From Deinococcales bacterium (GTDB lineage: Bacteria > Deinococcota > Deinococci > Deinococcales > JAAFIG01), in assembly GCA_031414595.1 (NCBI GenBank), contig JANNVX010000012.1, forward strand, positions 1 through 32,941: a stretch of DNA of 32,941 nt. The letters are read 5' to 3'. The position numbers were made by a program, and so were the translations under genes. The notes beneath the pieces are model-generated. The model was given only the letters and a program-made list of their open reading frames with translations, had not been told where the DNA came from and made no database searches. Of the stretch, positions 138 through 32,807 are shown in pieces. Position 1 is the first letter of the stretch. The number at the start of each line of letters is the position of its first letter.

Positions 138-647
138 TTAGACCCAAAAGAAGTTGACTTTACAAAATACACAAGTCTAAACCAGCAACTAGAAGAAGCT
201 GGAATAAAATTCCAAACCCTCTCGAGTTTTTCAACAGATACCCGCCTCAAACAACTTTATGACCTTGACCTCGAGCTAATTCTCGATGTGCCATTTGGAC
301 AAACTGCCACCCCAGAACCGTTTGAGCTTTGGCAAAAGAATTTTTTAGAAGACCCAGAAAATAACCCGGAGACCCTTTGGATAGCCACCCACAAGGCAAA
401 TTGGATTGCTTTAAGCAGTTTAGGCAAACAAAAAGACCATTTTTTTATCGGCATGACAGGGGTTAAAAAAGACTACCGAGGCATGGGCATTGCCAAAGCC
501 CTAAAACTCGAGGGGGTGCGTTATGCCCTAAACACTGGACTCGAGATTCGCACCATGAACGACCATGTAAACACCGCGATGCTCGAGATGAATAAAAGTA
601 TGGGCTTTGTGCAGCATCACTCGAGATTGCGTTTTGAGAAGCGTTGA
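138..647 (+). pseudogene. C-terminal half of a tandem-domain GNAT N-acetyltransferase, 5'-truncated by the IS630 insertion
   Basis: GNAT motif A (TGVKKDYRGMGIAKALK) and 'RTMNDHVNTAMLEMNKSMGF'. The ORF-track TTG start lies inside the IS tail, and the protein begins at the inter-domain 'LDPKEVDF' region typical of double-GNAT proteins. Confidence 0.7.
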
Positions 648-718
648 TGATTGTCGTTCAGCTATTGGCTGTTTGTTTCTACTGACTGCCTTTAGGAATC
701 GGATGAATTACTAAAATT

Positions 719-2740
719 TCAGTCGAGCAAGGTTAAACCTAGTAAAGTCGGGTTACTTTGTAGCCCCGCACTCTCGAGAACAATGCTTTTAATTGCCAAA
801 CTCGGCTTAGGATTTGCCCAAGTCATGACCACCACATTGATGTCTAAGCCGCTCTTGGTCTGTCCGCGCCAAACAGGGTCAAAGAGGGTGGTACGCACCA
901 AGGGTTCTGTCCAAGCACTGATGTTTCTACCGTACTCGAGTGGAATAACGGTATTTGTGCCGTCGGTATAAACAACCGTGTATGAACCAATTTTGGTGCG
1001 TGGGCTGGTCAGCGGTGATAACCAACCTGTGGTGTGTAAAAAAGCCAGACTGCTGGCGGTTGTACCAATCTCGAGACTGACTTTTTTTGGTAGGTTCTGG
1101 CATGGCGGACGAGCGCCCCACATCATGATGCCTCTACTTATATCAAAGGCATATGCGCCAAGTCGAACATTGCTGCCTGTTGGTAAGCTCGATAAATCGG
1201 TATCTGCGCCTTTCCCAATCCATTGGGTTTCGTCGGTGTCGCTTAAGGCTCGAGTGGCTAGGCTGGATAAGTTAAAGAGTTTTCCTGCAACTGGTGCTAT
1301 TTTTAACGGAAACCGAGCATCGCGGTAACGGCTGGCGCTGTCGGTGGGAATAGGCGCAGTGGTATTCCAGAAAGCATTTCCTGCATTCAAATAAGCAATA
1401 CCTTGTTCGACCTGACCATCAAGCAAGGTATTATTGCCAAAGTAGCCACTCCAACGGGTTTGCAATGCCCCAAAAGCCCCAACTCGAGCCACGGCGCTTG
1501 CCATGCTTTCGGGGTTGTTATTTGCAAACCAACTCGAGCCAATCGCTCTAAAACCCTGTTTTTGAATGTACTCGAGCAGAGGGTAATCGGCACTTGGACT
1601 ATAATTCCAGTAGGTGATGACCATATCTTTTGGTAGAAGCGGCAAAATCGTTTCGCGGTGCGACTCGGTGGCTGCGACATCATGCCAAATCATTGTGCCA
1701 ACATTCATGGTTTTGAGGTGCGAATGTAGCCGCACGGCATGGTCAGCAAAGATTTTACCTAGCCCTACCGCCATGCCATCTGGACGACCCGGAAAGCGGT
1801 CTCTGGCTGCTACTTCGTCGTGTCCGATATGCACAAATTCGGGTTTGAAGACTTCTACAGCTTCGGCTAAAATAGGCAGAATAATATTGTAAACCCGTTC
1901 ATCCAAGGTGTTATAGGCATAGGGGTCTTTGGAATCGGGGTCTTGCATCAGTTCGCGGTTTTTGTTGTTGTAAAAAAACCATTGGGCATGTCCGGGTGTT
2001 TCGATTAAAGGAATGGCTTTCATGCCGTGGGTGCGAATCAGTTCGGCGACCCGCCGCGCTTCATCTTTGCTTGCACCATTGGGATGCCAAATATTCTTAG
2101 CGCTGTCCCAACGCACATAATTACACATAATCAGCAAGTGTGAAAATTTAAGTTTAGCAAGTAACGGCACAAGAATATCATTGACCCCTTGGCTGGCACT
2201 GTCTAAATAAATCATCGCCATGCGGTTTGTTAAGCTGGGATAGTCTAAAATACTGGCAAATTGAAACCCATCTTTTTGAATTAACTGCCGTAAACTCTGC
2301 GCCCCTCGATACGCGCCAAGTGCATCAAAACCAACAAGACCAATTCCCGAACCGTCCACCCAAAGCCCGTAGCCCTCAGCACGGTTCGGCACTAGGCCTC
2401 GAGCCGTGGCTTCGGTTTTTAGCGCTGCATTCTCGAGTGTCCCAATCCGAATGGTTCTCGAGGATGGTGTTAAAGGCAACGTATCAAAACCGCGCATCTG
2501 CATTTCAGTATTCAAATCCCTGACCGCCCAAGCCAGTTCTTGGGCATTGCCCTCGAGTTTTATGCCTAGGTCTTTTAGTGCCAAAAACCCAGTCTCGAGT
2601 TTTATTTTTTGCGGCACTGGCAAAATACTCGGATGAGGATTTCCAGCAAAAGCATTTTCGATTCGGGTAAATGGCAAATTCTGGGCTGTAGCACTCGAGA
2701 CCACCAAAAGCAGCAAAAGAAAAAGTATTCGTTGTGTCAT
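719..2740 (-). CDS. Secreted glycoside hydrolase family 20 (beta-N-acetylhexosaminidase-like)
   Basis: Signal peptide, GH20 N-terminal domain (EGYGLWV...GAYRGAQSLRQL, DYPS), 'IPLIETPGHA' and catalytic 'HIGHDEV'. Leaderless -10 TATGCT lies 5 nt before ATG. Confidence 0.9.
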   Translation of the reverse strand: MTQRILFLLLLLVVSSATAQNLPFTRIENAFAGNPHPSILPVPQKIKLETGFLALKDLGIKLEGNAQELAWAVRDLNTEMQMRGFDTLPLTPSSRTIRIGTLENAALKTEATARGLVPNRAEGYGLWVDGSGIGLVGFDALGAYRGAQSLRQLIQKDGFQFASILDYPSLTNRMAMIYLDSASQGVNDILVPLLAKLKFSHLLIMCNYVRWDSAKNIWHPNGASKDEARRVAELIRTHGMKAIPLIETPGHAQWFFYNNKNRELMQDPDSKDPYAYNTLDERVYNIILPILAEAVEVFKPEFVHIGHDEVAARDRFPGRPDGMAVGLGKIFADHAVRLHSHLKTMNVGTMIWHDVAATESHRETILPLLPKDMVITYWNYSPSADYPLLEYIQKQGFRAIGSSWFANNNPESMASAVARVGAFGALQTRWSGYFGNNTLLDGQVEQGIAYLNAGNAFWNTTAPIPTDSASRYRDARFPLKIAPVAGKLFNLSSLATRALSDTDETQWIGKGADTDLSSLPTGSNVRLGAYAFDISRGIMMWGARPPCQNLPKKVSLEIGTTASSLAFLHTTGWLSPLTSPRTKIGSYTVVYTDGTNTVIPLEYGRNISAWTEPLVRTTLFDPVWRGQTKSGLDINVVVMTWANPKPSLAIKSIVLESAGLQSNPTLLGLTLLD

Positions 2741-2818
2741 ACGGTAGCATAAAAGAAAAACATGAGAGAAAAGAGGAGAGTAAACTCTCTAACCCATACA
2801 TATTAACTATTCTTAGGT

Positions 2819-3561: not shown

Positions 3562-3620
3562 CTAGACGTGACATTTGCCAATGCCTAGACGTGATATTTG
3601 CGGATGCTTAGAATGTTATT
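3562..3620. repeat. Imperfect 23-bp tandem direct repeat (about 2.5 copies) in a divergent promoter region
   Basis: CTAGACGTGACATTTGCCAATGC (3562-3584), CTAGACGTGATATTTGCGGATGC (3585-3607), degenerate TTAGAATGTTATT. Confidence 0.75.
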
Positions 3621-3631
3621 ATCCTGCCGCT

Positions 3632-5140
3632 ATGCGTAGCGATGATTTAGCCTTTTCTTGGCGTTCTACTCCAAAAGCCATGACCTTCAGTGCAAGGTTG
3701 GCTTTTGCGGCTGGTGTCCTGACTGGTTTTTTGCACCTGCCTTTTTTATTGGCTTGGCTCAGTGTCTTGCCACTGGCGGGCTTGTTGTACTTGGTGGCTC
3801 GAGAACAGACCGCTAAAGATGCGGCTCGAGTCGGGTTTTTTGGCTGGCTTGGCTTTTGGGCAGTGCATTTATTTTGGTTGCCGCAGTCGTTTTCGCTTAG
3901 TTTTGGTTCTTTTGTCTGGGTGATTATGCCGCTTTTATGGGTGGCGGAAGCGGCTCTAAATGCAGCGATGGCATGGCTGGCGCACCGGTTGACCAAAACC
4001 CACTTGGGTACAGTTTGGGTACTGGCAATGCTGGTTTTAATCCTCGAGTATGTTCGTGCCAACATGAGTGCTTTGTCTTTTCCGTGGGGGAATTTTGGGT
4101 ATACCTTAATAGATACCCCGTTAGCGCAGTTAGCCCAGTTTGGCGGGGTCTATTTACTGAGTTTTGTGCTGCTTGGAGTGGCTGCCAGTATTGCCGCTTT
4201 GGGCTTTCTCGAGTGGCGTTGGTTGCCTGTATCGGCGGCAGTGCTGGTCTTGGGTTTGGTCTTTGGGCTAACCCGTCCAGCGCCAAGTACCCCAAACCAA
4301 AATGCTTTATTGGTGCAGGGCAACATAGACCCATTGGGGCGTTTGGCACGTCCAAGTGGTAAATCTGACCTTGAAATTTTTAAGGATTTATCAAAACCAA
4401 AAAATCCCAATACGGTCATTATTTACCCCGAGGCAGCGCTTAGCCTTGAGCAACTTGCCAATTTGAACGGTTCAAGCAATGCTCCCAAATTAGGGCGTTT
4501 AATTTCGGGGGTTGCCGATTTTCGTCAGGGTGGACGGGTCAATGCTGTGGCAGCCATTAAGAACGGGACTTTACTAGGTACATCTACCAAGCAGCACCTT
4601 GTGCCTTTTGGGGAGTTTTATATTTTTCGGCGTGAACTGGCATTTATTTACAATCCGATTTTTTCCTTGCTTGGTTTAGGGGCTGGTTTTGGAGGTATGG
4701 ACTTAAAATTTGAAACCCGTACCCTCGAGTTGGATAATGAGCGTTTTGGTACATATGTTTGTTATGACAGTGTTTTCCCAGATGTAGCGAGGGCAAGGGT
4801 ACAAGACGGGGCGCAAGTCTTGGTTAATGTGTCTAACGATGGTTGGTTTGGGCGCACCTGGGGAATCGAGCAGCATTTTATGATGGGCAGACTCCGCGCC
4901 ATCGAAACAGGACGTTATGTGCTACGGGTTGGTAATACTGGTATTACGGCAGTGATTAGCCCACTTGGTCAGGTTTTACAACGCGCTCCGATTCAGCAGT
5001 CCTTGGCGCTCGAGGCAAAATATGCACTCGAGAAAACCCAAACCTTTTATGTGCGCTTTGGGGACTGGGTAATTTGGTTGGTTATCTTGGCAGCCATCTT
5101 TGGCGTAGTGGCTTCGCGTACCATAGACAATGCTTGGTAA
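3632..5140 (+). CDS. lnt: Apolipoprotein N-acyltransferase
   Basis: Multi-TM N-terminus with FPW motif; nitrilase domain with VQGNI, YPEAA, KQHLVPFGE, VCYDSVFP, SNDGWFG, RAIETGR and NTGITAVI. Start moved to ATG 3632, which has a TATCCT -10 box 6 nt upstream. Confidence 0.95.
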   Translation: MRSDDLAFSWRSTPKAMTFSARLAFAAGVLTGFLHLPFLLAWLSVLPLAGLLYLVAREQTAKDAARVGFFGWLGFWAVHLFWLPQSFSLSFGSFVWVIMPLLWVAEAALNAAMAWLAHRLTKTHLGTVWVLAMLVLILEYVRANMSALSFPWGNFGYTLIDTPLAQLAQFGGVYLLSFVLLGVAASIAALGFLEWRWLPVSAAVLVLGLVFGLTRPAPSTPNQNALLVQGNIDPLGRLARPSGKSDLEIFKDLSKPKNPNTVIIYPEAALSLEQLANLNGSSNAPKLGRLISGVADFRQGGRVNAVAAIKNGTLLGTSTKQHLVPFGEFYIFRRELAFIYNPIFSLLGLGAGFGGMDLKFETRTLELDNERFGTYVCYDSVFPDVARARVQDGAQVLVNVSNDGWFGRTWGIEQHFMMGRLRAIETGRYVLRVGNTGITAVISPLGQVLQRAPIQQSLALEAKYALEKTQTFYVRFGDWVIWLVILAAIFGVVASRTIDNAW

Positions 5141-5203
5141 GTCGCCCATAGACACTCTTGGTAAGTCGCCCATAGACATGCGCTCATAGACAACTCTTGG
5201 TAA
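5122..5203. repeat. 24-25-bp tandem repeat duplicating the lnt 3' end and stop codon (about 3.5 copies)
   Basis: CATAGACAATGCTTGGTAAGTCGCC / CATAGACACTCTTGGTAAGTCGCC / CATAGACATGCGCT / CATAGACAACTCTTGGTAA. Confidence 0.85.
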
Positions 5204-6049: not shown

Positions 6050-6919
6050 ATGATTGCAACTCAACTTCATCAAAACTCAAAAGTCGTTGAAGTCAGAAAA
6101 CTACTAGGTAAACCATTTTTTGAAGCTCCTAACTGCCTGATTTATCATCAAGATTGTCTCGAGGGTATGAGGTTGCTAAATTACGAACTTATAGATTTAA
6201 CAATAACCTCACCGCCATACAATATCGGCAAGGAATACGAACGGGTCTTACCTTTAAGTGATTACATCACATGGTGCGAAACTTGGATTTATGAAGTGTA
6301 CCGACTTACAAAACCCAACGGAACATTTTGGCTTAACTTGGGTTACACCAGTCTTCCAGATACTGCCAAAGCAATACCATTACCTTATTTGTTATGGAGT
6401 GTAATTCCTTTTTTTTTAATGCAGGAAATTGTTTGGAACTACGGGGCTGGCGTGGCTGGTAAGAAGTTTTTTTCACCACGTAACGAAAAATTTTTATGGT
6501 TCGTTAAAAACCAAGAAGAGTACATATTTAACTTAGATGCTGTGCGTGACCCAAATGTAAAGTATCCAAATCAGAAAAAAAATGGCAAAATAAAAGTTAA
6601 TCCACTTGGCAAAAACCCAACTGATGTATGGCAATTTCCTAAAGTCACTTCTGGAAAAAACCGCAGTTCAACGGAGCGAACCGCCCACCCAGCCCAATTT
6701 CCAATTGCGGTCATTGACCGAATTATCCGAGCTTCATCAAATGTTGGTCAAACTATTCTCGATCCTTTTATGGGGTCTGGTACATGTGCAGAGGTTGCAC
6801 TTCGTAATCAAAGAGCGATTATTGGTTTTGAAATTAACCCAATGTACTGCGAGGTTATTGCCAACAGACTCGAGAGCCTGATGACCCAGACAACACTTTT
6901 TGATGAAACTAGATTTTAA
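6050..6919 (+). CDS. Type II DNA methyltransferase, beta class, probably N4-cytosine (M.ScaI-like)
   Basis: Catalytic TSPPY precedes HPAQFP and the SAM-binding DPFMGSGT (beta order). SPPY is typical of m4C enzymes. Adjacent to the restriction gene. Confidence 0.9.
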   Translation: MIATQLHQNSKVVEVRKLLGKPFFEAPNCLIYHQDCLEGMRLLNYELIDLTITSPPYNIGKEYERVLPLSDYITWCETWIYEVYRLTKPNGTFWLNLGYTSLPDTAKAIPLPYLLWSVIPFFLMQEIVWNYGAGVAGKKFFSPRNEKFLWFVKNQEEYIFNLDAVRDPNVKYPNQKKNGKIKVNPLGKNPTDVWQFPKVTSGKNRSSTERTAHPAQFPIAVIDRIIRASSNVGQTILDPFMGSGTCAEVALRNQRAIIGFEINPMYCEVIANRLESLMTQTTLFDETRF

Positions 6920-9932: not shown

Positions 9933-10027
9933 AGCCATGCCGTTATCAAGTCTCGAGCCATGCCGTTATTAAGTCTCGAGCCATGCCGCTATCAAGTCTC
10001 GAGCCATGTCGCAGGTTAAGTCTCGAG
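9933..10027. repeat. 23-bp tandem repeat (4 copies), each carrying one CTCGAG, in a divergent intergenic region
   Basis: AGCCATGCCGTTATCAAGTCTCG / AGCCATGCCGTTATTAAGTCTCG / AGCCATGCCGCTATCAAGTCTCG / AGCCATGTCGCAGGTTAAGTCTCGAG. Confidence 0.9.
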
Positions 10028-14471: not shown

Positions 14472-14624
14472 CCTCCCCTCCGGCGCGTCGCTTCGCTCCT
14501 AGCCACCTCCCCAAATGCCTAGGCATTTGGGTGAGGCTTTTCAAGGCTTTTAGCATTTGCCTTGAAAAGCCTCGCCCAACGGTGACGTTGGGGAGGTGGC
14601 GAGCGAAGCGAGACGGAGGGGAGG
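14472..14624. repeat. REP-like inverted doublet (two about 70-bp GC-rich palindromic units head-to-head)
   Basis: Left CCTCCCCTCCG..TCGCTTCGCTC..GCCACCTCCCCAA..TTGGGTGAGGCTTTTCAAGGC; right GCCTTGAAAAGCCTCGCCCAA..TTGGGGAGGTGGCGAGCGAAGCGA..CGGAGGGGAGG. Perfect 15-bp inner stem 14533-14547/14559-14573; each unit has its own internal hairpin. Confidence 0.85.
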
Positions 14625-14977: not shown

Positions 14978-15778
14978 TTAAGTTAAAGGGTCTGGGCGAC
15001 GACTCAATAAACCTTCACGAATAAAAACTTCTACGACCGACTCGAGTGTCCCTGCATCGCGCTCCAAGGTACTGGCAATCTCGAGTGGGGTTTTGCCTCG
15101 TCCTAGAAGCGTCAGCACCTCGAGGGCTGGCTTACCATGGGCTGCCCTTGCTCGGTTATAGGTGTCGGTAATGGGATTAACGGCATCGCGTCCCCGTAGC
15201 GTTAGCACATAGCGTTCCGAAGCCCAAGCGCCAATCACTCGAGGCAGGGTTAAGGATTTGGGACGCAGGGCGGCAGGATACGCCCCCGTTTCACGACTTC
15301 CTATTTGTACCCGTCCAAACGCCTCACCATCTGCCATAAATGCCAAGTAGCCATTGCCCATTGCCCGTGAACCTGTAAAACCATCCGACGGCTGCACCCG
15401 CCACGGACGATCCTGCAAGCCCGATAAGGCATGAGCCACCCGCCGCTCGAGAATCAGTGCCTCGAGCAGCAGCCCTTCGGAGTAAGTGCGTGAAAACTCG
15501 AGCAATGCCGCATCTGACCACAATAAATCCTCGCCCTTGACTGCACAAGCATTGACAATTTTACCTTCAAAAAACAGTGCCACTGCCGATTCAAGCACCA
15601 ACGCCCCATCAAAACCACTTTTCTCGAGGTAAGCACAAAGTTTTGGTAATTCGGCAAAACTATGATGTAAGCCAAAACCAAGGCGCTGACCACTTGGCAA
15701 AGCATTTAACAAAGGTAACGTTGCGTCTGGGAAGGCACGTTCGAGAATGGGAGTGGCTTTGCTGCGTTCCTGCGCCAT
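14978..15778 (-). CDS. Hypothetical protein, possible C-terminal winged helix
   Basis: Long ORF with host-like codon use; start moved to MAQERS to avoid overlap. C-terminal 'GKTPLEIASTLERDAGTLESVVEVFIREGLL' is wHTH-like. Confidence 0.65.
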   Translation of the reverse strand: MAQERSKATPILERAFPDATLPLLNALPSGQRLGFGLHHSFAELPKLCAYLEKSGFDGALVLESAVALFFEGKIVNACAVKGEDLLWSDAALLEFSRTYSEGLLLEALILERRVAHALSGLQDRPWRVQPSDGFTGSRAMGNGYLAFMADGEAFGRVQIGSRETGAYPAALRPKSLTLPRVIGAWASERYVLTLRGRDAVNPITDTYNRARAAHGKPALEVLTLLGRGKTPLEIASTLERDAGTLESVVEVFIREGLLSRRPDPLT

Positions 15779-15806
15779 ACCTTGTATTCTTGCACAGATT
15801 TGGTAC

Positions 15807-16601
15807 TTAGAACATTGTTTTGATCGGGAACTGGGAAATAGCAACTCGAGTCCCACCAAGAGCAAAAATTTCTTCGGTTAAAACTTGGCTCGAGGTCTGG
15901 CTACGGAGTTCAGGCAAGAGTTTATCTATGCCGCTTCCCAGATGGCTCTGGCTTTGATGTGCCAGAATCGCGGCTCGTTTCTGTTCAACAACTGGGCTGG
16001 TGTCCAAGGTCAGAATTGGGTCTGGTAGGGCGTATTCGTCTAGGTCAAAGTCTCCAAAACCAGCTTGATTAAACCGCTCAAGCATGGCGCGGCTGGGCAT
16101 GATGTAAAAAAGTTTTTGTGGGGCTTTTATTAAACTGGCACTTGAGAAAAATGCAGCGTTGACAATTTGGTGGGTGGCAATGTGGTCTGGGTGTCCGTAA
16201 TAGCCACGCGGGTCAAAGGTGACAATGGCATCGGGTTTGGTTTTTTCTATGACGCTTCTAACCTCTCGAGCCACGGCAAAAATATCCGCATCCACAAGGC
16301 GATTCTTGAAGCCACTGGGTTGACGAAAACCACTGTCGTGATACTCGAGAAAACGCGGTGGTTGTGTGCCTAGAATCTGACAAGCAGTTTGTAACTCGAG
16401 TTGACGCAGTTCTGGAATAGTTTTTTTGCCTAAAATAGCTGGCGGGACTGTACCCGCTTCGCCTTTGGTTAAACACAACACTTGGGTTCGCACGCCTTGG
16501 CTGGCAAGCAGCGCGAGGCTTCCACCACAGCAAAAACTCTCATCATCGGGATGGGCAAAAACGGCGAGTAGGGTTCTCGGCTCGAGTATTGTGGACTTCA
16601 T
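15807..16601 (-). CDS. PIG-L/LmbE-family deacetylase (MshB/BshB-like)
   Basis: VFAHPDDES, LTKGEAG, TFDPRGYYGHPDH and AILAHQSQ motifs. TATACT -10 lies 8 nt before ATG 16601. Confidence 0.9.
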   Translation of the reverse strand: MKSTILEPRTLLAVFAHPDDESFCCGGSLALLASQGVRTQVLCLTKGEAGTVPPAILGKKTIPELRQLELQTACQILGTQPPRFLEYHDSGFRQPSGFKNRLVDADIFAVAREVRSVIEKTKPDAIVTFDPRGYYGHPDHIATHQIVNAAFFSSASLIKAPQKLFYIMPSRAMLERFNQAGFGDFDLDEYALPDPILTLDTSPVVEQKRAAILAHQSQSHLGSGIDKLLPELRSQTSSQVLTEEIFALGGTRVAISQFPIKTMF

Positions 16602-18055: not shown

Positions 18056-18086
18056 AAAAACCCGTTCTCGAAACTCGAGAACGGGT
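18056..18086 (-). terminator. Repeated CTCGAG-core hairpin, copy A (terminator)
   Basis: Perfect 12-bp stem ACCCGTTCTCGA-aac-TCGAGAACGGGT with a U-tract on the minus strand. Confidence 0.8.
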
Positions 18087-19875: not shown

Positions 19876-19909
19876 GCCAAATAGTTTACCGCAACTTGGC
19901 TCGAGCCAT

Positions 19910-19942
19910 AAAAAAACCCGCCCTCGAGTCTCGAGAACGGGC
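19910..19942 (-). terminator. Repeated CTCGAG-core hairpin, copy B (terminator)
   Basis: Minus strand GCCCGTTCTCGAGACTCGAGGGCGGGTTTTTTT. Confidence 0.8.
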
Positions 19943-23132: not shown

Positions 23133-24188
23133 TTATGCGTAACTTGCCATGACTTTTTCTAAGCTCTCACGGCTTGGGCGGGTCAGGTGTTCGGGCAGCA
23201 GTGCCAGTGGTGTAGCGTGAACATCTTCGGTGTCTATCAGGGTTTTGCGGCTTTCATTGAGGTATACTAAGCCCGTCACCAATTCGCCACTGCGTTGCCC
23301 ATCGGCTAATAACTTCAAAGCACTGAGTTTATCGGTTGGATTGTGGTCTTTGGCGAGTTTTTTAAGTTGAATCGTTGGACCTTCGTGCAGTTTAACGCTC
23401 AAGACTTCGCCAGGTTCGTACTCCACACTAATCTCGGAGAATTCTGGGACAAAGGTAATGTCGTGAATCGGCACTTCGTTTTCCTTGCCGTAACTGTAGC
23501 TTTTGGTGCTGTCGTCAGCGTTGTTAAAGGTCACGCATGGCGAAATGATGTCCAGCACCGCCACACCCTTAAAACTCATGGCGGCTTTTAAGAGTTCGGT
23601 CACTTGCTTGGCATCACCCGCAAAACTGCGTGCCACAAATCCTGCACCTGCAATAATCGCTTCGGCACAAAGGTCTAGCGGTGGTTGTTCGTTTGTACCA
23701 GCGTATTTGAGGGTTTGCCCTTCGTCGGCAGTGGCGCTAAATTGCCCCTTGGTCAGTCCGTAGACACCGTTGTTCTCGATGATGTAAACCATTGGTACAT
23801 TGCGACGAACCGCGTGCTTAAACTGCCCTAAACCAATGCTTCCAGAGTCGCCGTCGCCAGACACACCAATCGCGGTTTGGTTGCGTTGGGCAAGCATTGC
23901 ACCCGTGGCGACGCTGGGCATCCGTCCGTGAACTGTGTTGATACCGTGAGCGCCATTCAAAAAATAAGCTGGCGACTTACTCGAGCAACCAATGCCAGAC
24001 AGCTTAATCACTTCATGGGGTTTTAAGCCAATGCTAAACGCCGCGTCTATAATTCGCATCGAGATGCTGTCATGTCCGCAACCCGGGCAGAGGGTGCTGG
24101 GTAAGCCTTTGTAATCGGCTTTGGTTAAACCAATTTTGTTGGTGTTTGCGGTCGGTACTGTTGGAGTCGGTACTGTTGCAGCAGTCAT
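23133..24188 (-). CDS. korB: 2-oxoacid:ferredoxin oxidoreductase subunit beta
   Basis: LCPGCGH, SGIGCSS, HGRMPS, GDGDSGSIG (TPP binding), NNGVYGLTKGQFS and SPCVTFN. Substrate specificity not determinable. Confidence 0.93.
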   Translation of the reverse strand: MTAATVPTPTVPTANTNKIGLTKADYKGLPSTLCPGCGHDSISMRIIDAAFSIGLKPHEVIKLSGIGCSSKSPAYFLNGAHGINTVHGRMPSVATGAMLAQRNQTAIGVSGDGDSGSIGLGQFKHAVRRNVPMVYIIENNGVYGLTKGQFSATADEGQTLKYAGTNEQPPLDLCAEAIIAGAGFVARSFAGDAKQVTELLKAAMSFKGVAVLDIISPCVTFNNADDSTKSYSYGKENEVPIHDITFVPEFSEISVEYEPGEVLSVKLHEGPTIQLKKLAKDHNPTDKLSALKLLADGQRSGELVTGLVYLNESRKTLIDTEDVHATPLALLPEHLTRPSRESLEKVMASYA

Positions 24189-26005
24189 GAGTTTACTCCT
24201 TTTACTCGAGTCGCCACAAAGTCGCCACTGAGCGGTAAGCCGTCGCAGTGGGCAATGCTGTGGATGCGGGTGGCAAATTCTGGGTATTCGGTACGCAGTA
24301 AAATAGCAAGTTGACCATGTTGGTTCATTTCAATCACGATCACTTTGTCGTGGTTGCCAATAAATTCGCGCACTTCCGAGCCAAATGGCAATGCTCGAAC
24401 GCGCATGTAGTCACTCGAGATTCCTTCTTTGGTAAGCATCGCTCGACCCTCAACCATGGCTGGGTCTACACTGCCCATGGCAATCAGCCCAAGGCTCGAG
24501 CCAGTTAAGTCAATCACTGCTTTTGGCACGATGTCACGAGCATGGTTATGCTTTCGGTCAAGTCGGGCAAGGTTTTTCTGCCAATCTTCTGGACGCTCGG
24601 AATAGGTGGCAAGGTCGGTGTGACCTGTACCGCGTGTGAAGTAAGCTGCGCCCATGGCATCTGTACCGGGCAATGTACGTGGACCCACGCCTAAACCGTC
24701 TTCGTCTTTGTACCGTGCAAAGGTATGACCTGCTTTAATCACATCTTCGGCGCTTAAGACCTTACCGCGATTCATCGGTTCGGTTGGGTACTCGAACGGT
24801 TCAGACATCCAGATATTCATGCCCAAATCAAGGTCAGAATTGACAAACACAGGGGTTTGCAGTTGGTCGGCGAGGTCAAAAGCCCGCCAGCCAAATTCAA
24901 AGCATTCTTTGGGGTCGCTTGGCAGCAGCACAATATGTTTGGTGTCGCCGTGCGACAAGTAATAGGTGCTTAATAAATCGCCCTGCGAGACCCTTGTTGG
25001 TAAGCCAGTGCTAGGTCCCATGCGTTGAACATTCCAAATCACAATTGGCACTTCGGCAAAATAGGCATAACCCGCAAACTCAGACATTAAGCTAATACCG
25101 GGTCCACTGGTGCTGGTCATGGCTCGAGCGCCGCCCCAACCTGCGCCGATTAGCATGCCAATCGCGGCTAATTCGTCTTCGGCTTGGACAATAGCAAAAG
25201 TGGCTTTGCCAGTCTCTGTGTCTTTACGCAGTTTTGGCATCCATTCAATCATGCCGTCGGCTAGGCTGGTGGCTGGGGTAATTGGATACCATGCCAGTAC
25301 GGTACAACCACCGTAAATGCCGCCCAAAGCTCCTGCCATGTTGCCATCAATTAAAATTTTGCCTTTGGTGGCATCCATTCGTTCGGCGCGGTATGGGTCG
25401 GTTTTGGTAACATTAGCGGCGCACCAGTCAAAAGCAGCTTTGGCGATGGCAAAATTGGGGTCTACCAGTTTTGCTCGACCACCAAAGTTTTTATTTAGGT
25501 AGGCATAAATCGAATCCATTTCGATGCCGACAACCTGAGCCAGCGCACCAACGTAGACCAAGTTAATCATGCGGTCACGAAACTTGGGGTCTACGTTTTG
25601 TTCTTTCATGATTGCACTGGCGGGCAGCGCATAAACACTTATATCGTCTCTCGAGCCTACGAGTTTAATGTTGTCGGGGTAGAACATTACGCCGCCACTT
25701 GGCAGGGTGCGGAAATCCTCTTCAATGGTTTTGGCATTAAACGCCACCAGAATTTCAGAATAATCCCGACGTGCAGTAAAACCCGCGCCACTGGCACGAA
25801 TCGAATACCAAGTTGGCAAGCCCTTAATGTTACTTGGAAATAAGTTCTTAGCGTTGACTGGAATGCCCATTTGGAACAGTGCATTAACCAATGTTGCATT
25901 GGCGGTTTGAGAACCCGAACCGTTGACTGTAGCGACGTTAATCGTAAAGTCATTGATAACAGGAGCGCGATTGGTGCTGACTGGACGTTCGGCGAGTTGC
26001 GTCAT
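24185..26005 (-). CDS. korA: 2-oxoacid:acceptor oxidoreductase subunit alpha
   Basis: Fused gamma-like N-terminus, YPITPAT, QAEDELAAIGM, TSTSGPGISLM, QRMGPSTGLPT. ATGA-coupled to the beta subunit. Confidence 0.93.
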   Translation of the reverse strand: MTQLAERPVSTNRAPVINDFTINVATVNGSGSQTANATLVNALFQMGIPVNAKNLFPSNIKGLPTWYSIRASGAGFTARRDYSEILVAFNAKTIEEDFRTLPSGGVMFYPDNIKLVGSRDDISVYALPASAIMKEQNVDPKFRDRMINLVYVGALAQVVGIEMDSIYAYLNKNFGGRAKLVDPNFAIAKAAFDWCAANVTKTDPYRAERMDATKGKILIDGNMAGALGGIYGGCTVLAWYPITPATSLADGMIEWMPKLRKDTETGKATFAIVQAEDELAAIGMLIGAGWGGARAMTSTSGPGISLMSEFAGYAYFAEVPIVIWNVQRMGPSTGLPTRVSQGDLLSTYYLSHGDTKHIVLLPSDPKECFEFGWRAFDLADQLQTPVFVNSDLDLGMNIWMSEPFEYPTEPMNRGKVLSAEDVIKAGHTFARYKDEDGLGVGPRTLPGTDAMGAAYFTRGTGHTDLATYSERPEDWQKNLARLDRKHNHARDIVPKAVIDLTGSSLGLIAMGSVDPAMVEGRAMLTKEGISSDYMRVRALPFGSEVREFIGNHDKVIVIEMNQHGQLAILLRTEYPEFATRIHSIAHCDGLPLSGDFVATRVKGVNS

Positions 26006-26171
26006 CGAAAAAGTACCTCGAGAGAATAGAGAGAAATTCTTGCTTAAGCCACCGTGACTTAAGTACCGCCCATGAGTCTAGCAAACCTGAACCGTTAAGA
26101 GCATGGGCAAAATGCCCAAAGAGTCTATGTGTCTTTGGCGGGAACAACAAGAATTACCCTATACTAATGCC

Positions 26172-26765
26172 ATGACTGCCTTACTTGAACGACCAGAAAA
26201 AAAATCTGAGGCACAACCAGTTACACCACAAGGACTTCGTTTCGCACGAATTACGCTCGAGATGTATGACACGCTGATTGCAGCCGGAAAAATCACCAAT
26301 GAATCTCGAGTTGAACTGCTTGATGGTTATATTGTACGAAGGGAAGACATGAATCCACCACATATGAACCGAGTCAAAGATTTGTATGGTCTACTCAAGC
26401 CACAATTTCAGGGACGGGCGGATGTCTACCAAGAAAGTGCCATTGAGCTTCCGACAGATGGAAGACCTCAGCCAGATATTGCAATTATTGTTAAAAATCA
26501 GGCTCGAGACAAGTTTGCTCGTCCAGAAAGTATTCATTTAATCATTGAAGTAGCCGAAACTACCATTCACACAGACCGTGATCATAAGCAACTGCTGTAC
26601 GCTCGGGATGGCATACCCGAATACTGGATTCTGAACTTAAACACCAACGAACTCGAGGTTTACCGAAAACCAAATGGCGAGCGCTACACGAGTAGTTTTA
26701 CGCTCGGTGCTGGCGAAACAACCGCTTGCCTTGCGTTTCCAGATGACCAAATAGATTGGGCATAA
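26172..26765 (+). CDS. Uma2-family (DUF820) PD-(D/E)xK endonuclease-like protein
   Basis: RVELLDGYI, PQPDIAII, LIIEVAETT..DR..K..LYARDGIPEYWILNL. TATACT -10 lies 6 nt before ATG 26172. Confidence 0.92.
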   Translation: MTALLERPEKKSEAQPVTPQGLRFARITLEMYDTLIAAGKITNESRVELLDGYIVRREDMNPPHMNRVKDLYGLLKPQFQGRADVYQESAIELPTDGRPQPDIAIIVKNQARDKFARPESIHLIIEVAETTIHTDRDHKQLLYARDGIPEYWILNLNTNELEVYRKPNGERYTSSFTLGAGETTACLAFPDDQIDWA

Positions 26766-29752: not shown

Positions 29753-29764
29753 GATGACCTCTTT

Positions 29765-29803: not shown

Positions 29804-29907
29804 GGCTCGAGTGTACAAAGATTTCGAGCAGCAAGCAACCGCTAGACTAAACCTGCATATTTTCAATCAGTATTCAAAAAACTCTTTTGAAATGCTAGTA
29901 TAGAAAA

Positions 29908-30582
29908 ATGAAAAAGAACAGACAAGCGTGCGTAGTTCGAGCAAAACCTGACGGGAAAGATAGAGAAGAGCAGTTTTTAAGTGGCGGGATTGCTAGTTTA
30001 GGATACCCAAGTTTGGAAGATTTGAGAAATTCAAAAAATCAAATTTTATCTTTTGATGAAATTTTTGCAATTATGACCAGAGAATATGGAGATAGCCATA
30101 GTGTTTCACTTGCTACAACGCAGGTTTTTGCATTCGCAAATCTGCCTATTGGGTCAATCATTGTTACACCAAGTATCAAAACTCGAGATATTCATTTACT
30201 CGAGACTACGAGTGAATATTATTTTGACAAAACTGTTCCAGACGACGTTGGAAACCCACATCAGATTCGAGTGAAACACTTGAAAACCGTGTCTCGAGAA
30301 GTTTTTCCCATTGAATTTCAAGACATGCTTAAAGCCGCTAAAAAAGCTGTGACCAAATTACAAGGGCGCAATGAAGAAACCGTTTTTGCAGTTGTGGATG
30401 GTAATTCGCCCACGCCAAAAACTTTGCCAGAAGGAGTAGAAGCGAAAATCGAAAAGACGCTTTTGGAATTACTAGAAAGTGACTCAAGAGAAATCAGGAT
30501 ACAGGCTGCTATGAAGCTGATGGATAGCAATTCTGAAAGCGTACGACTTAAAGCTATCGAAGCTATCAATCCTAAAATTTGA
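29908..30582 (+). CDS. Protein with Mrr/McrB N-terminal-like (EVE/PUA-like) domain and C-terminal HEAT-like repeats, no nuclease domain
   Basis: 'VVRA....E.QFL..GIASLGY..L.DL...FA..LPIGSIIVTPS...SEYYFD...PHQIRVK.L..VSR..F' resembles the N-domain of long Mrr and McrB-like proteins. 'LLELLESDSREIRIQAA..L.DSNSESVRLKAIEAI' is HEAT-like. TAGTAT -10 lies 6 nt before ATG. Confidence 0.6.
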   Translation: MKKNRQACVVRAKPDGKDREEQFLSGGIASLGYPSLEDLRNSKNQILSFDEIFAIMTREYGDSHSVSLATTQVFAFANLPIGSIIVTPSIKTRDIHLLETTSEYYFDKTVPDDVGNPHQIRVKHLKTVSREVFPIEFQDMLKAAKKAVTKLQGRNEETVFAVVDGNSPTPKTLPEGVEAKIEKTLLELLESDSREIRIQAAMKLMDSNSESVRLKAIEAINPKI

Positions 30583-30602
30583 ATCTTCTTTTTGAATTTC
30601 TA

Positions 30603-30631
30603 TTGACAAATACTTACACTTGCTGTATTAT
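30603..30631 (+). promoter_or_regulatory. Near-consensus sigma70 promoter
   Basis: TTGACA-17 nt-TATTAT, followed by a leader with an AAGGAG RBS before ATG 30685. Confidence 0.75.
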
Positions 30632-30684
30632 TTTTAAGAGCGATTGCTAAGTCGGGAATGCTCTGAATCAAAAGGAGAAATTTT

Positions 30685-30981
30685 ATGTCTGAAGAAACAT
30701 ATCAAAAGCCTGCAACCGTCACTTCACCCAAGGAAGCGCTGGACCTCGGACCTATCTTAGTTGATTCAGGGGAGGGAGGCTATGCCTTAGCACTTGGAAA
30801 ATGGTACTCCCAACCAGTATTACTGATTCGTTGGAATGGCACTGTTGAGCAGCAAAAGGGCAACCCAATTTCTACCTTTCATGCTACATGGCTCGTGCTG
30901 CCAGACGAATTCCAGACTGCAATCGTTGGAACTCTATCCTTTAAAAATCAGCGTATTGCTCGAGAATTTTTGGAAGCATAA
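30685..30981 (+). CDS. Small conserved hypothetical protein (V.SPK...RWNG...GNP.S...TW..LP family)
   Basis: Strong promoter and RBS; the motif set is recalled from small uncharacterised proteins in mobile/accessory regions. Confidence 0.75.
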   Translation: MSEETYQKPATVTSPKEALDLGPILVDSGEGGYALALGKWYSQPVLLIRWNGTVEQQKGNPISTFHATWLVLPDEFQTAIVGTLSFKNQRIAREFLEA

Positions 30982-30982
30982 A

Positions 30983-31384
30983 GTGATTATTACAGGCAAT
31001 AAAAAACAAATCCCTCGAGAAATTTTACTCGAGGGAACTTGGTACGTTGGTCGTGGTCGTAATTCCAATTTCGGACTTTGGACTGGTACTTACTTTTTAA
31101 CCATCGGCTCGAGTATGGGCAATGCTGTAGCAAAGCACGAAGCCTATTACACCCCAAAAGCCGAGTGCGTTGGTGAACCCCCTGAAGAAAGTTGGGGTAC
31201 ATTCCAGCCTTTTCTTGCTTTAGACGATGGTGATGTTCTCGAGTTTGATGATGAATCTTATGGATATGCCAAAACTCTTAAATTCCCAAGTAAAGCAGGA
31301 AAAGCAAAACCTGATCCTAACTGGACTCTCGAGGGGCAGAAGCGTTTGAAAGCCTCTGCAAAACGAGCGCTTGGGCGTAAATAG
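30983..31384 (+). CDS. Hypothetical protein, phage-like (IP...L..G.WY.GR.RN....W.G..F...F.P)
   Basis: GTG start 1 nt after the upstream stop, suggesting coupling. The upstream part of the ORF-track call overlaps the previous gene and is probably not coding. Confidence 0.6.
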   Translation: MIITGNKKQIPREILLEGTWYVGRGRNSNFGLWTGTYFLTIGSSMGNAVAKHEAYYTPKAECVGEPPEESWGTFQPFLALDDGDVLEFDDESYGYAKTLKFPSKAGKAKPDPNWTLEGQKRLKASAKRALGRK

Positions 31385-31540
31385 TTCACGAAGCGGCTGG
31401 CGAAGCGGTTCTGCGCCAAACGCGAATTATTAACACGGCTCGGCGTTGGGCTTTGCTCGAGCTTTAACATCCTTGGATTTGCGGCAATCGTACTTTTGGT
31501 GCGATTTGGTCTTTGTATTCTCAAAAAAGCGGGTCTTGGT

Positions 31541-31843
31541 ATGCAAAAAAATTATCGTCAAGGCGATGTGATTCTCGTTTCGATCAACCCTCCAGAATCG
31601 GCTCGAGCCAAAGAAGTGGTTCTGGCTGAAGGTGAATTGTCTGGTCATGCTCACCGTATCACAAAAGGTTATGCGGTACTTCATGAAGAGGAATATTTTC
31701 GCTCAGGACAGTATATTCGCTTGCTCGAGTGCAGAACTGAGTGCGAATTAACCCATGAAGAGCATCACAAAATTATTTTGCCAATGGGTTTGTACCATGT
31801 ATCAATCCAGCGTGAATTTGGTCGGGATTATCGTGGTGATTAG
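31541..31843 (+). CDS. RQGD-motif His-rich small protein, usual partner of DUF6745
   Basis: YRQGDV, LAEGELSGHAH, LTHEEH..I.LP.G.Y.V..QREF. Confidence 0.85.
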   Translation: MQKNYRQGDVILVSINPPESARAKEVVLAEGELSGHAHRITKGYAVLHEEEYFRSGQYIRLLECRTECELTHEEHHKIILPMGLYHVSIQREFGRDYRGD

Positions 31844-32807
31844 TGCTTATCAACCCGGGTGGCGACCGCTCGATAAGTTGTTTCGTCAGCATTATTTGAT
31901 GGTCAATACCAATCAGGCTTGGGCGGAATCGGTTTATGCACGGCTTTATCGGCAACTCAGGTTGCCCAAGCCTCAGTTCTTGTGGTTTGAGAGTTCTGTG
32001 GCGCTCGAGGTGGAATTGGCAAAAATGAAGCCTTCTACCTGTGGTAAACCATTGGCTTATCCGCTGACCAAATTGTTTGAAATAGCGCTTGGGACGTTCT
32101 CGAGTGATGGCTTTGATCCAGTTCTTCTGAGTCGTTTGCACGGTCACATTTATAGGCTTTGGGCAATGGTGGATCAATGGTCGTTCCGGAATTATCAGTT
32201 ACATTTTGCGTTTCAAATGGCAAAACAAGTGTTTTATCGCAGCATTGGCCTGCAATACAGCCAAGAATCCCCAGAACACCTTCATTTTTGGTCTGAATTC
32301 ATGGATAGCGGTGCCAATTGGAGTGTCCCTTTTGAACACAAGGTCTTGTTTTGTAAAAGCCCAATCATCAGGCGTTGGACTGGAAAAACACATCCGATGC
32401 TTCATGCCGATGGCGAACCTGCCTTGGTATTTGGTGACAATCAAGCCGTTTGGTATTTCCAAGGTAAGCGATTGCACAATCTGCGTTACCATGTGCATAG
32501 TTCACTTTGGCAAGCCGACTGGCTGCATGACGAATCAAATTCACAGATGCGAGAACTCTTGATTGAAGTTTTGGGACATCAAAGACTACTATCTGAACTC
32601 GGCTCTCGAGAACTTGATTCTTGGCGCGAATACAAACTTTTGACGCTTGAGAATCATGAACTGCCGATCCGATTCCTGAGCATGACTTGCCCGAGTACAG
32701 GAAAGGAGAACCTTGTACGTGTACCTCCAAATGAAACAACGGCTCGAGAAGCAGCCGCTTGGATTGGGTGGGGCGTTGATCCAGAATCGTATTTGATTGA
32801 AACTTAG
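31836..32807 (+). CDS. DUF6745 domain protein
   Basis: LHADGEPALVFGD...WYFQG, WQADWL.DE.N...R..LIE.LG, ELDSWREY.LL and MTCPSTG....RVPP...TAREA.AW..WG.DPE. GTG start (31833 or 31836) overlaps the partner's end. Confidence 0.85.
   Translation: MISAYQPGWRPLDKLFRQHYLMVNTNQAWAESVYARLYRQLRLPKPQFLWFESSVALEVELAKMKPSTCGKPLAYPLTKLFEIALGTFSSDGFDPVLLSRLHGHIYRLWAMVDQWSFRNYQLHFAFQMAKQVFYRSIGLQYSQESPEHLHFWSEFMDSGANWSVPFEHKVLFCKSPIIRRWTGKTHPMLHADGEPALVFGDNQAVWYFQGKRLHNLRYHVHSSLWQADWLHDESNSQMRELLIEVLGHQRLLSELGSRELDSWREYKLLTLENHELPIRFLSMTCPSTGKENLVRVPPNETTAREAAAWIGWGVDPESYLIET

Follow-up and report, generated by a model that had tools for sequence, protein, structure and literature searches.

CTCGAG as a candidate highly iterated palindrome specific to one uncultured lineage of Deinococcales

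Why does a single six-base palindrome recur about once per 200 bases in the DNA of a Deinococcales bacterium? The question arose from a contig of 32,941 nucleotides, analyzed over its full length and called the window hereafter, in which approximately 150 copies of CTCGAG had been counted by hand. The computed number is 156 in 32.9 kb (4.7 per kb), close to this estimate; the copies are dispersed over positions 221..32748, the first lying at 221 and the last at 32743-32748. CTCGAG ranks first among all 6-mers of the window, the runner-up being TTTTTT with 62 copies. Base composition predicts 6.8 copies, and dinucleotide-preserving shuffles gave an expectation of 3.53 (sd 1.79, maximum 8), the observed number being reached in none of 100 shuffles. 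The excess over these composition-based expectations is 23-44x, which rules out that CTCGAG is an avoided target of restriction-modification.

To the preliminary description, the copies had seemed to be often extended to palindromes of 8-10 bp within a system centred on TCGA. Neither proposal held. Extensions to 8 bp were found at 34 of the 156 sites (39 expected) and extensions to 10 bp at nine of them (9.75 expected), i.e. at chance level, and the flanking positions carry almost no information. Outside CTCGAG, TCGA occurs 73 times in the window compared to about 119 expected occurrences, and none of the three remaining palindromes of the form NTCGAN occurs in it. Words differing from CTCGAG at one position had observed/expected ratios (O/E) of 0.06-1.2 in the window and of 0.13-1.44 and 0.10-1.93 in the pooled sequences of two subclades (see below). 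The other 63 six-base palindromes showed O/E values of 0.37-0.45 (0.37 in the window's subclade); many other palindromes are also avoided in cyanobacterial genomes with the highly iterated palindrome HIP1 (GCGATCGC). CGATCG does not occur in the window, and HIP1 proper, or another word containing CGATCG, was rejected on this count.

Sites were found in each of the coding phases as well as in non-coding DNA. By phase, 72 copies read CTC|GAG, 36-37 xCT-CGA-Gxx and 28 xxC-TCG-AGx (two overlapping ORFs share one site), 20 are wholly intergenic, and each of the 29 ORFs used contains at least one copy. Synonymous-codon shuffling, which preserves the proteins and a codon usage inflated by the motif itself, yielded 4.36, 3.33 and 1.29 sites per phase against the observed 72, 37 and 28, and in 300 replicates a maximum total of 19 against 137, an enrichment of 11-22x in all three phases. 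In 2,562 b of intergenic DNA, 20 sites compare with 0.45 expected (44x; maximum of 4 in 1000 shuffles), and the density is 7.8 per kb there versus 4.5 per kb in coding DNA. The phase independence and intergenic occurrence claimed at the outset were thereby confirmed, as was the conclusion drawn from them, a process at the DNA level instead of codon or codon-pair bias: the excess survived codon-aware nulls in each phase, was not confined to the Leu-Glu phase and was strongest intergenically. Presence in every coding phase and in non-coding DNA, beyond the effect of codon usage, is a property of the HIP class that CTCGAG shares. Wherever coding constraint leaves room, a force at the DNA level works on the bare hexamer, and the motif is used in 72 of 112, 37 of 70 and 28 of 85 peptides that can be spelled with it.

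The excess is not restricted to the window. All 17 related loci (about 204 kb), originating from uncultured Deinococcales/Deinococcota MAGs and serving as a stand-in for the rest of the window's genome, revealed O/E values of 10.9-28.3 at a GC content of 45-64%, and 2.8-7.6 copies per kb, approximately one per 130-350 bp. A short palindrome at least about 15-fold over expectation genome-wide is characteristic of the HIP class, to which CTCGAG was assigned on the window and these 17 loci. The O/E did not exceed 3.7 in 63 other loci. Pooled over the two subclades, 511 copies in 99.6 kb (O/E 23.9) and 748 in 137 kb (O/E 18.2) were counted, while loci outside the clade contained 166 in 887 kb (O/E 0.6). 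A similar enrichment had been suspected for other Deinococcota; this applies to one uncultured Deinococcales clade only, but not to the opening 50 kb of two plasmids, D. radiodurans MP1 (O/E 0.47) and T. thermophilus pTT27 (2.66), or to a Trueperaceae MAG locus (2.9). CTCGAG abundance is constant clade-wide, whereas avoidance of GATC and GGCC differs among members. The force behind it predates the split of the clade.

Individual sites were compared between the window and its relatives. Against a phase-matched hexamer expectation, conservation was significant in four of six pairwise comparisons, which are not independent of each other: 42 of 47 sites were conserved in L004 (31.7 expected, p=5e-4), 15 of 17 in L003 (5.3), 11 of 15 in L002 (3.6) and five of five in L014 (1.7), while six of seven in L001 (4.5) and 11 of 18 in L016 (10.3) did not reach significance. 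The constituent codons were better conserved inside the motif than outside it in all four cases, CTC with 28/32 vs 33/67, CGA with 31/33 vs 27/56, GAG with 24/32 vs 39/77 and TCG with 21/28 vs 42/75; three of these differences are significant, again in comparisons that are not independent. Conservation of sites and codons beyond background, a further property of the HIP class, is therefore present. Among five close relatives, ancestral sites had changed at four of 90 columns, compared with 0.127 per column in the background, and none of eight ancestral one-off words had become a site, a number too small to gauge a drive towards the motif. Three sites are deeply conserved around the 2-oxoacid:ferredoxin oxidoreductase genes, whose alignment shows the two subclades to be approximately 70% identical at the nucleotide level: 25123..25128 in the alpha gene (alignment column 880; 14 of 16 aligned clade sequences, both subclades), 24205..24210 near the alpha/beta junction (column 1798; 12 of 15) and 23980..23985 in the beta-subunit gene (column 2070; 13 of 15). 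On the other hand, five sites are unique to the window and five to L004, as against 42 shared ones, and lineage-unique sites also appeared in the oxidoreductase alignment. Thus, individual sites outlast their neighbouring sequence, yet sites still arise and vanish. Their conservation is not proof of selection since continuing biased repair in both lineages predicts it as well.

The spacing of the copies is indistinguishable from random placement (coefficient of variation of the gaps 0.95 vs 0.99+-0.08). It resembles a Poisson process, the copies neither excluding one another nor clustering, and the only period, at the short range of the 33 kb window, is 3. Some local arrangements were noted. 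An intergenic tandem repeat on the plus strand (9933..10027; about four units; period 23 with 3.3 copies and 94% matches, or period 46 with 2.0 copies) lies upstream of a solute-binding-protein ORF and runs into its start (10006); each 23-bp unit holds one CTCGAG (9952, 9975, 9998, 10022). The best terminator-like hairpin of the window (18060..18086, minus strand; 12 pairs followed by a T-run, arms of 12 nt with 100% complementarity) is situated directly 3' of the ORF 18097-19875(-) and carries an exact CTCGAG (18074-18079) in one arm and a one-off copy in the other. Three copies within 36 bp (19900..19935; 19900, 19923, 19930) occupy an 81-b spacer between two minus-strand ORFs, and an inverted pair (31014, 31028) forms a 9-pair minus-strand hairpin with a T-rich tail (31011..31036) within the ORF 30836-31384. 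On the minus strand, an ORF without a Pfam family (14978..15865) is rich in sites (nine, 10.1/kb, eight of them in the Leu-Glu phase); the strongly conserved gene for the TPP-binding beta subunit (23133..24188) has a single one (0.95/kb).

CTCGAG behaves like HIP1 in four respects: it is hyper-abundant and phase-independent, its sites are conserved beyond background, and its codons are better conserved inside the motif than elsewhere. Both words are short palindromes that are hyper-abundant in coding and non-coding DNA throughout a clade, and HIP1 sites also beat background conservation, with constituent codons better kept inside the motif, according to the passages of Xu et al. 2018 considered here. 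CTCGAG differs in sequence, in length (a 6-mer instead of an 8-mer) and in phylum. With 2.8-7.6 copies per kb, its density surpasses the maximum given for HIP1 in these passages of Xu et al. 2018, 'as high as one per 350 nt'. Moreover, words that differ from it by one base do not strongly favour changes at the outer positions, and an inner core for a methyltransferase, as CGATCG or GATC would be, was not identified in it. The distribution of HIP1 is periodic with periods of 10-90 kb; the period of 3 noted above concerns the short range that a 33-kb window covers. Alternate HIPs of single cyanobacterial strains likewise have a different palindrome in the place of HIP1 and are accompanied by a methyltransferase of matching specificity; as far as described in the cited parts of Elhai 2015, they are sporadic in single genomes, reach about 1 per kb and agree with a model needing a G beside the methylated C. 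By contrast, CTCGAG is common to 17 of 17 sampled species-level genomes, is several-fold denser and contains no GC dinucleotide.

Like CTCGAG, the uptake sequences of Neisseriaceae and Pasteurellaceae (DUS/USS) are words over-represented throughout the genome and specific to a clade; their copies are dispersed, and some form inverted pairs in terminator-like hairpins. However, they are non-palindromic with extended consensus flanks and occur about once per kb, whereas CTCGAG is a bare 6-bp palindrome with about 5 copies per kb. An assignment to DUS/USS was rejected for this 6-bp palindrome with uninformative flanks, compared to a non-palindromic core of about 10 bp, the motif length given in the introduction of Xu et al. 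2018. RAATTY of Campylobacter jejuni is also a short, palindromic and very frequent hexamer. Methylation at RAATTY marks DNA as self for natural transformation, and DNA lacking methylation at this word is not taken up by C. jejuni, as stated in the part of PMC10046745 cited here. The word CTCGAG itself is recognized by XhoI/PaeR7I-type restriction-modification and by a haloarchaeal m5C methyltransferase. RAATTY is frequent largely through the AT-rich genome, but CTCGAG, known here from sequence alone, lies 23-44x above its composition-based expectation. The CTCGAG-specific m5C methyltransferase exists in Halorubrum sp. BOL3-1, for whose genome only 560 sites are listed in the material used from PMC8112702. 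Since restriction normally selects against sites, and those of the clade are hyper-abundant, an active cognate endonuclease seems unlikely and an orphan methyltransferase likelier.

Candidate genes were searched for in the loci at hand. The window's only DNA methyltransferase (PF01555, 6050-6919) adjoins a ScaI-family endonuclease gene. Neither a methyltransferase specific for CTCGAG nor a reader or an uptake receptor came to light in about 237 kb of genomes of approximately 5 Mb, and no DNA methyltransferase family matched among 130 scanned ORFs out of 195 in the related loci.

On these grounds, we tentatively regard CTCGAG as a lineage-specific highly iterated palindrome of the uncultured Deinococcales clade and a functional analogue of HIP1, with a self tag of an orphan methyltransferase as its likeliest role; this reading may well be correct, though it falls somewhat short of probable. 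A resident enzyme or binding protein with sequence specificity for DNA would act on the hexamer; judging from HIP1 and from the methylated RAATTY of Campylobacter jejuni, it is most likely an orphan methyltransferase for CTCGAG. Sites would arise through ordinary point mutation and then be retained by selection, each marked copy serving as a 'self' tag whose benefit is small and roughly additive; the Poisson-like spacing suggests such an additive action per site. Wholly by analogy, the tag might act in DNA uptake and/or in homologous recombination or repair. For HIP1, a function as uptake sequence has been put forward (Rodriguez-Cruz et al. 2026), and its methylated form raises transformation >100-fold (Kamoku & Nielsen preprint), as far as the portions of these two sources cited here go.

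Biased DNA repair, in which a resident methyltransferase together with methyl-directed or very-short-patch-type mismatch correction turns near-sites into CTCGAG and protects the copies already there, the sites themselves being functionless, is a rather unlikely alternative. It explains the phase independence, the higher density in intergenic DNA, where constraint is weakest, and the conservation in both lineages with persistence throughout the clade. In E. coli, very-short-patch repair by Dcm/Vsr on CCWGG combines a methyltransferase with a mismatch endonuclease and alters word abundance, but the effect is small and predicts a depletion of T-containing variants. No such depletion was seen: TTCGAG/CTCGAA (O/E 1.44 in subclade A, 1.93 in B) and CTTGAG/CTCAAG (1.36 and 1.06), the C-to-T products that a T:G-correcting drive should remove, are among the commonest one-off words, which contradicts a word bias driven by this type of repair. 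An ORF of the DUF559 family (14630-14971), which we take to share its fold class with Vsr, is present in the window and matches PDB 3hrl, an 'endonuclease-like protein', but neither the Vsr family nor a C5-methyltransferase was matched in the window or in the 130 scanned ORFs of the related loci. The alternative corresponds to Elhai's ratchet model for HIPs as well as to a bias of the Dcm/Vsr type, and section 3.4 of Elhai 2015 offers an explicit model for alternate HIPs. As presented there, this model depends on a G adjacent to the methylated C and levels off near 1 site per kb. CTCGAG has no GC dinucleotide, there is no preference for a G before its first C (79 of 312 symmetrised flanks), its density in the clade is well beyond that limit, and its spacing is not under-dispersed.

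It is unlikely that an abundant nucleoid-associated or chromosome-organising protein binds CTCGAG independently of methylation, a reading modelled on the one that Xu et al. proposed for HIP1. A palindromic hexamer fits a dimeric DNA-binding protein, the sites are conserved, and selection with a role in chromosome structure is argued for HIP1 in the cited passages of Xu et al. 2018. However, neither a preferred spacing nor helical periodicity or clustering was detected at short range, and no candidate protein was found.

An effect at the level of translation or protein, through a preferred CTC-GAG codon pair or selection for Leu-Glu peptides, is very improbable even though this phase is the biggest class (72 of 136 coding sites) and Leu-Glu is over-represented. 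The other two phases exceed the synonymous null 11x and 22x and intergenic DNA its own null 44x; once the motif is set aside, CTC and GAG are minor codons (82 of 998 Leu codons and 74 of 439 Glu codons, respectively), and the reverse dipeptide Glu-Leu occurs at expectation (O/E 1.02-1.18). Leu-Glu is the top dipeptide of both subclades (O/E 2.22 and 2.11; 0.99 outside), being spelled by CTCGAG in 191 of 321 and 234 of 345 cases compared to 153 of 1692 outside the clade. The CTCGAG pressure doubled the frequency of this dipeptide. A dispersed mobile or REP/MITE-like repeat, suggested by the 23-bp array and the few hairpins containing the motif, is the least credible explanation of all, because the flanks of the 156 copies have no common sequence, 136 copies are in-frame parts of ordinary genes, conserved enzymes among them, and an overlap with an exact CTCGAG was seen in only six of 18 short inverted repeats (one more has a near-site in each arm).

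Searches of the literature library used here found no earlier description of a CTCGAG system. CTCGAG represents a HIP-like system in a second phylum, and the pressure behind it is strong enough to bend protein sequences. It is conceivable, if less than probable, that this uncultured family-level lineage of Deinococcales possesses an ancient core genome-marking system, in which a methyltransferase and a reader tag self DNA for uptake, recombination or repair, as a second, independent invention of a HIP. If so, some 20,000 sites would be present on a 5-Mb chromosome by extrapolation, and the HIP principle would have been invented independently outside the cyanobacteria.

The hexamer CTCGAG occurs 156 times in the window, the first copy at 221 and the last at 32743. 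Base composition predicts 6.8 copies and dinucleotide-preserving shuffles gave 3.53 (sd 1.79, maximum 8), the observed number being reached in none of 100 shuffles. At a GC content of 46%, CTCGAG is top-ranked among all 4,096 hexamers; TTTTTT comes second with 62 copies, and the remaining top hexamers are mostly one-base shifts of CTCGAG. The genome is represented by these 33 kb alone and the gene models are mechanical ORFs. For counts by reading phase, the 29 longest non-nested ORFs were used, 23 of which belong to a Pfam family. All 29 harbor at least one site. The phase CTC|GAG (Leu-Glu) accounts for 72 copies, xCT-CGA-Gxx for 36-37 and xxC-TCG-AGx for 28, while 20 copies are wholly intergenic.

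Codon, codon-pair or dipeptide bias could be ruled out as the cause. Synonymous codons were shuffled among all ORFs in 300 replicates, which preserved the proteins and the overall codon usage, itself inflated by the motif. This procedure yielded 4.36, 3.33 and 1.29 sites per phase and at most 19 in total, compared to 137 observed, and a within-gene shuffle of codon order gave a mean total of 5.9. Outside the motif, CTC makes up 82 of 998 codons for Leu and GAG 74 of 439 for Glu, both being minor codons; nevertheless, CTCGAG encodes 72 of the 112 Leu-Glu pairs and is used in 37 of 70 and 28 of 85 tripeptides able to host the other two phases. The 2,562 b of intergenic DNA contain 20 sites where 0.45 were expected (maximum 4 in 1000 shuffles), corresponding to 7.8 per kb compared to 4.5 per kb in ORFs. 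Thus, the excess in each phase and between genes is not a codon, codon-pair or peptide effect, and the phase-independent, DNA-level excess proposed in the preliminary description was confirmed.

The favored word is the hexamer alone. Among the 156 sites, next to no information resides in the eight positions to either side; 8-bp palindromes number 34 (39 expected) and 10-bp palindromes nine (9.75 expected), so that a longer consensus was excluded and the impression that the sites are often extended to 8-10 bp reflects chance. Hexamers differing from CTCGAG by one base were not enriched, neither in the window (observed/expected ratio, O/E, 0.06-1.18) nor in the two pooled groups of relatives described below (0.13-1.44 and 0.10-1.93). 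A degenerate word of the AvaI type was ruled out, since CCCGAG/CTCGGG showed an O/E of about 1 and CCCGGG occurred twice (5.1 expected). The system is not centered on TCGA either, as had been supposed: 156 of the 229 TCGA lie within CTCGAG, TCGA is not enriched elsewhere, and the window contains none of the sister words ATCGAT, TTCGAA and GTCGAC. After masking of CTCGAG, no second hyper-abundant word comparable to it was detected. The over-represented 8-mers were then led, in the window and in its closer relatives (subclade A), by TTGG/CCAA-rich words, one with 16 copies (15x), which may be a side effect of a vocabulary restricted through palindrome avoidance.

The arrangement of the sites is inconspicuous. 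The gaps had a coefficient of variation of 0.95 (0.99±0.08 for random placement), 36 were shorter than 50 b (32±4.5), the largest measured 903 b, and no periodicity other than 3 was found among 930 sites in nine loci. No regular spacing, clustering or helical periodicity was thus evident. A few copies lie in special contexts, namely in a 23-bp tandem array of four units (9933-10027) and in the stems of two terminator-like hairpins (18060-18086 and 31011-31036); since this concerns few sites only, embedding in hairpins is no general explanation. Two more short tandem repeats (3562-3612, period 23, 2.2 copies; 5121-5178, period 24, 2.4 copies) lack CTCGAG; the first lies where the apolipoprotein N-acyltransferase ORF (3575-5140) begins and the second where it ends. 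Intergenic DNA at 14510-14579 contains a perfect 13-nt palindrome (14510-14531), followed by an inverted repeat with 21-nt arms (14527-14547 and 14559-14579, 95% complementary). Rfam and tRNA scans of the window gave no matches. ORFs of 295, 592, 224, 182 and 115 aa without a Pfam or NCBIfam family are located at 14978-15865 (minus strand), 18097-19875 (minus strand) and within 29908-31843; some of them are richer in CTCGAG than any other ORF of the window (10-12 per kb).

To place the word among relatives, the alpha subunit of the 2-oxoacid:ferredoxin oxidoreductase, encoded at 24185-26005 (minus strand) within the oxidoreductase region 23133-26005, was used to retrieve 80 loci from one-genome-per-species contigs. 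Seventeen of them, the best-related at 98-74% protein identity, come from 17 different assemblies, all MAGs of uncultured Deinococcales (16) or Deinococcota (1). The other 63 of these best 80 loci are mostly from Chloroflexota (53-60% identity) and include one further Deinococcota locus, from a Trueperaceae MAG (55%); the almost exclusively Chloroflexota-like homologues beyond the clade may be due to gene transfer or to sampling. In all 17 clade loci, at GC contents of 45-64%, the O/E of CTCGAG was 10.9-28.3 (2.8-7.6 per kb), and in 15 of them it was the commonest hexamer. By contrast, the 63 non-clade loci showed values of 0-3.7. Pooled, the window-like subclade A had 511 sites in 99.6 kb (23.9x) and subclade B 748 in 137 kb (18.2x), compared to 166 in 887 kb (0.6x) outside the clade. 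The flanks of the clade loci contain unrelated genes, e.g. recA with cinA and ligT, metK, lptF/G and pilC-like genes; thus, the excess is not tied to one genomic neighborhood. In one of them (L007, 19368-21785), cinA, a LigT-like phosphoesterase gene and recA, the latter with five sites (4.6 per kb), lie in a row on one strand. This matches the arrangement known from Deinococcus and agrees with how the MAGs are labelled taxonomically. For cultured Deinococcota, plasmid DNA was sampled: over the first 50 kb of each plasmid, the O/E was 0.47 for D. radiodurans MP1 and 2.66 for T. thermophilus pTT27. The Trueperaceae locus reached 2.9. Enrichment in other Deinococcota, as surmised earlier, therefore holds for the uncultured relatives and fails for these samples, so that the hyper-abundance is a mark of one uncultured clade rather than of the phylum.

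The relatives are MAG contigs, and comparisons among them lack phylogenetic independence. Window sites aligned to relatives were compared with phase-matched hexamers. They were retained significantly beyond expectation in the clade loci L004 (42 of 47, 31.7 expected, p=5e-4), L014 (5 of 5, 1.7 expected), L003 (15 of 17, 5.3 expected) and L002 (11 of 15, 3.6 expected), but not significantly in L001 (6 of 7, 4.5 expected) and L016 (11 of 18, 10.3 expected). Codon conservation inside and outside the motif, a control used for HIP1, the cyanobacterial type case of a highly iterated palindrome (Xu et al. 2018), was summed across five non-independent comparisons. CTC was conserved in 28/32 cases inside and 33/67 outside, CGA in 31/33 and 27/56, and GAG in 24/32 and 39/77, whereas the difference for TCG (21/28 and 42/75) was not significant. 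In the oxidoreductase alignment of 16 clade members, 23 columns have a site in one or more of the sequences; of these, four are common to both subclades, which share about 70% nucleotide identity, and several are confined to one lineage. The window and L004 (91.6% identity) have 42 sites in common, while five differ on each side. Among five close genomes of subclade B, four singleton losses were found at 15 ancestral sites, with a change per column of 0.044 in these sites compared to 0.127 over all columns; no gains were seen from eight ancestral words one base off, too few data for a gain rate or a drive. The sites are thus old and individually kept about three-fold better than average sequence, yet they are still turning over. 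Putative recent arrivals tend to a lower density, which is no more than suggestive: the two ScaI-type restriction-modification (R-M) genes, whose GC content is 39-41%, are below average with 2.3 and 3.3 sites per kb, and the HigB toxin gene of L004 (3883-4218, 38.7% GC), neighbor of a transposase ORF, has none. This DDE (IS) transposase ORF (642-1856) runs counter with seven copies; its 5.8 per kb is the usual density of the clade, so that the element has probably long been resident in the lineage.

The word also affects the proteins. In both subclades, no dipeptide exceeds its expectation as strongly as Leu-Glu (O/E 2.22 and 2.11), which occurs as often as expected in the non-clade loci (0.99, 698 ORFs); for Glu-Leu, Leu-Asp and Ile-Glu, the values are close to 1 in either set. 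CTCGAG encodes 60% and 68% of Leu-Glu in the two subclades compared to 9% outside the clade, and the tripeptide classes able to host the other two phases are in excess as well (70 vs 44 and 85 vs 62 expected). Amino acid sequences are hence altered by a DNA-level pressure.

Other palindromes are strongly avoided in the clade. The remaining 63 six-base palindromes had O/E values of 0.37 and 0.45 in the subclades and 0.81 in non-clade loci. In the window, 27 of all 64 are absent, and GGCC (5 vs 95 expected), GATC (21 vs 127) and CCGG (33 vs 95) are rare. The avoided set varies among clade members, GATC and GGCC not being strongly avoided in the loci L005, L006 and L013, while the excess of CTCGAG is constant. 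The pattern is in line with a core feature that stays stable while the set of restriction systems changes. The only DNA methyltransferase gene of the window (6050-6919, plus strand; N6/N4 type, PF01555, closest solved relative M.RsrI) is convergent to and overlaps with a ScaI-family restriction endonuclease gene (6916-7530, minus strand; PF09569, E 5.6e-70). AGTACT, the ScaI site, is absent from the window (9.1 expected). The two genes thus form a conventional R-M pair, and the methyltransferase is no orphan. A search of the clade loci for DNA methyltransferases or Vsr detected no DNA methyltransferase family in the 130 of 195 ORFs scanned; the other 65 are oxidoreductase orthologues or orthologues, judged by synteny, of scanned genes. 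A DUF559 protein of 113 aa (14630-14971, minus strand; PF04480) resembles the 'endonuclease-like protein' of PDB 3hrl (E 9e-9), weakly matches an NCBIfam model of the E. coli YcjD type and has no adjoining methyltransferase; a link to CTCGAG would be speculative. A gene for a putative endonuclease of the Uma2 family (PF05685) adjoins the oxidoreductase operon in the window (26103-26765, plus strand) and in the clade loci L002 (9262-9861) and L003 (1873-2475). Cyanobacteria, as the other phylum that has a highly iterated palindrome, show a great expansion of the Uma2 family.

The force acts on the DNA word itself: it does not depend on reading frame, extends across the clade, is old, preserves sites and has a roughly additive effect per site. 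By analogy with known systems, we favor the explanation that CTCGAG would be recognized by a resident sequence-specific methyltransferase or binding activity and that selection may retain the sites, which would label DNA as self during its uptake, recombination or repair. Elhai (2015) described a co-occurrence of alternate palindromes of this kind with methyltransferases of the same specificity, and a preprint by Kamoku & Nielsen reports that methylated HIP1 raises natural transformation. [quoted passage not shown] 2026), and C. jejuni is described as taking up RAATTY-methylated DNA only (PMC10046745). The main rival, less probable but still plausible, is biased repair, by which sites without function would accumulate. 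Conservation of sites is expected under selection and biased repair alike. The rival is weakened, however, by the one-off words arising from C-to-T changes, which are the commonest one-off words and not depleted. Moreover, Elhai's ratchet, a repair model for alternate palindromes, requires a GC dinucleotide, which CTCGAG does not have, and saturates at about 1 site per kb, whereas the density here is several-fold higher and the spacing not under-dispersed.

In the CC-licensed literature of PubMed Central and bioRxiv, no description of CTCGAG hyper-abundance in any bacterium was found, and an earlier mention elsewhere is possible; the only related match, from an MspJI methylome, concerns an m5C methyltransferase of a haloarchaeon whose genome has 560 sites (PMC8112702). 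By its operational hallmarks, CTCGAG is a highly iterated palindrome. It differs from HIP1 in the word, CGATCG being absent from the window, and an uptake sequence of the DUS/USS type as defined, REP/MITE elements and a VSP-type word bias were each rejected as its class.

Work on HIP1, which has remained puzzling for three decades, has to our knowledge been confined to a single phylum. An independent case with another word in another phylum, and with relatives at 45-64% GC, opens comparative tests of what such palindromes are for. Such tests can address which genes for methyltransferases, competence or repair accompany the motif in both phyla, and whether selection or biased repair keeps the sites. 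With Leu-Glu as the clade's most over-represented dipeptide, it is also a clean case of DNA-level pressure rewriting protein sequence. CTCGAG provides a compact signature for binning or recognizing contigs of the lineage, and XhoI-type enzymes would, if the sites are unmethylated, yield fragments of about 200 bp. If the findings on HIP1 carry over, genetic systems for this group may need CTCGAG sites or methylation on incoming DNA.
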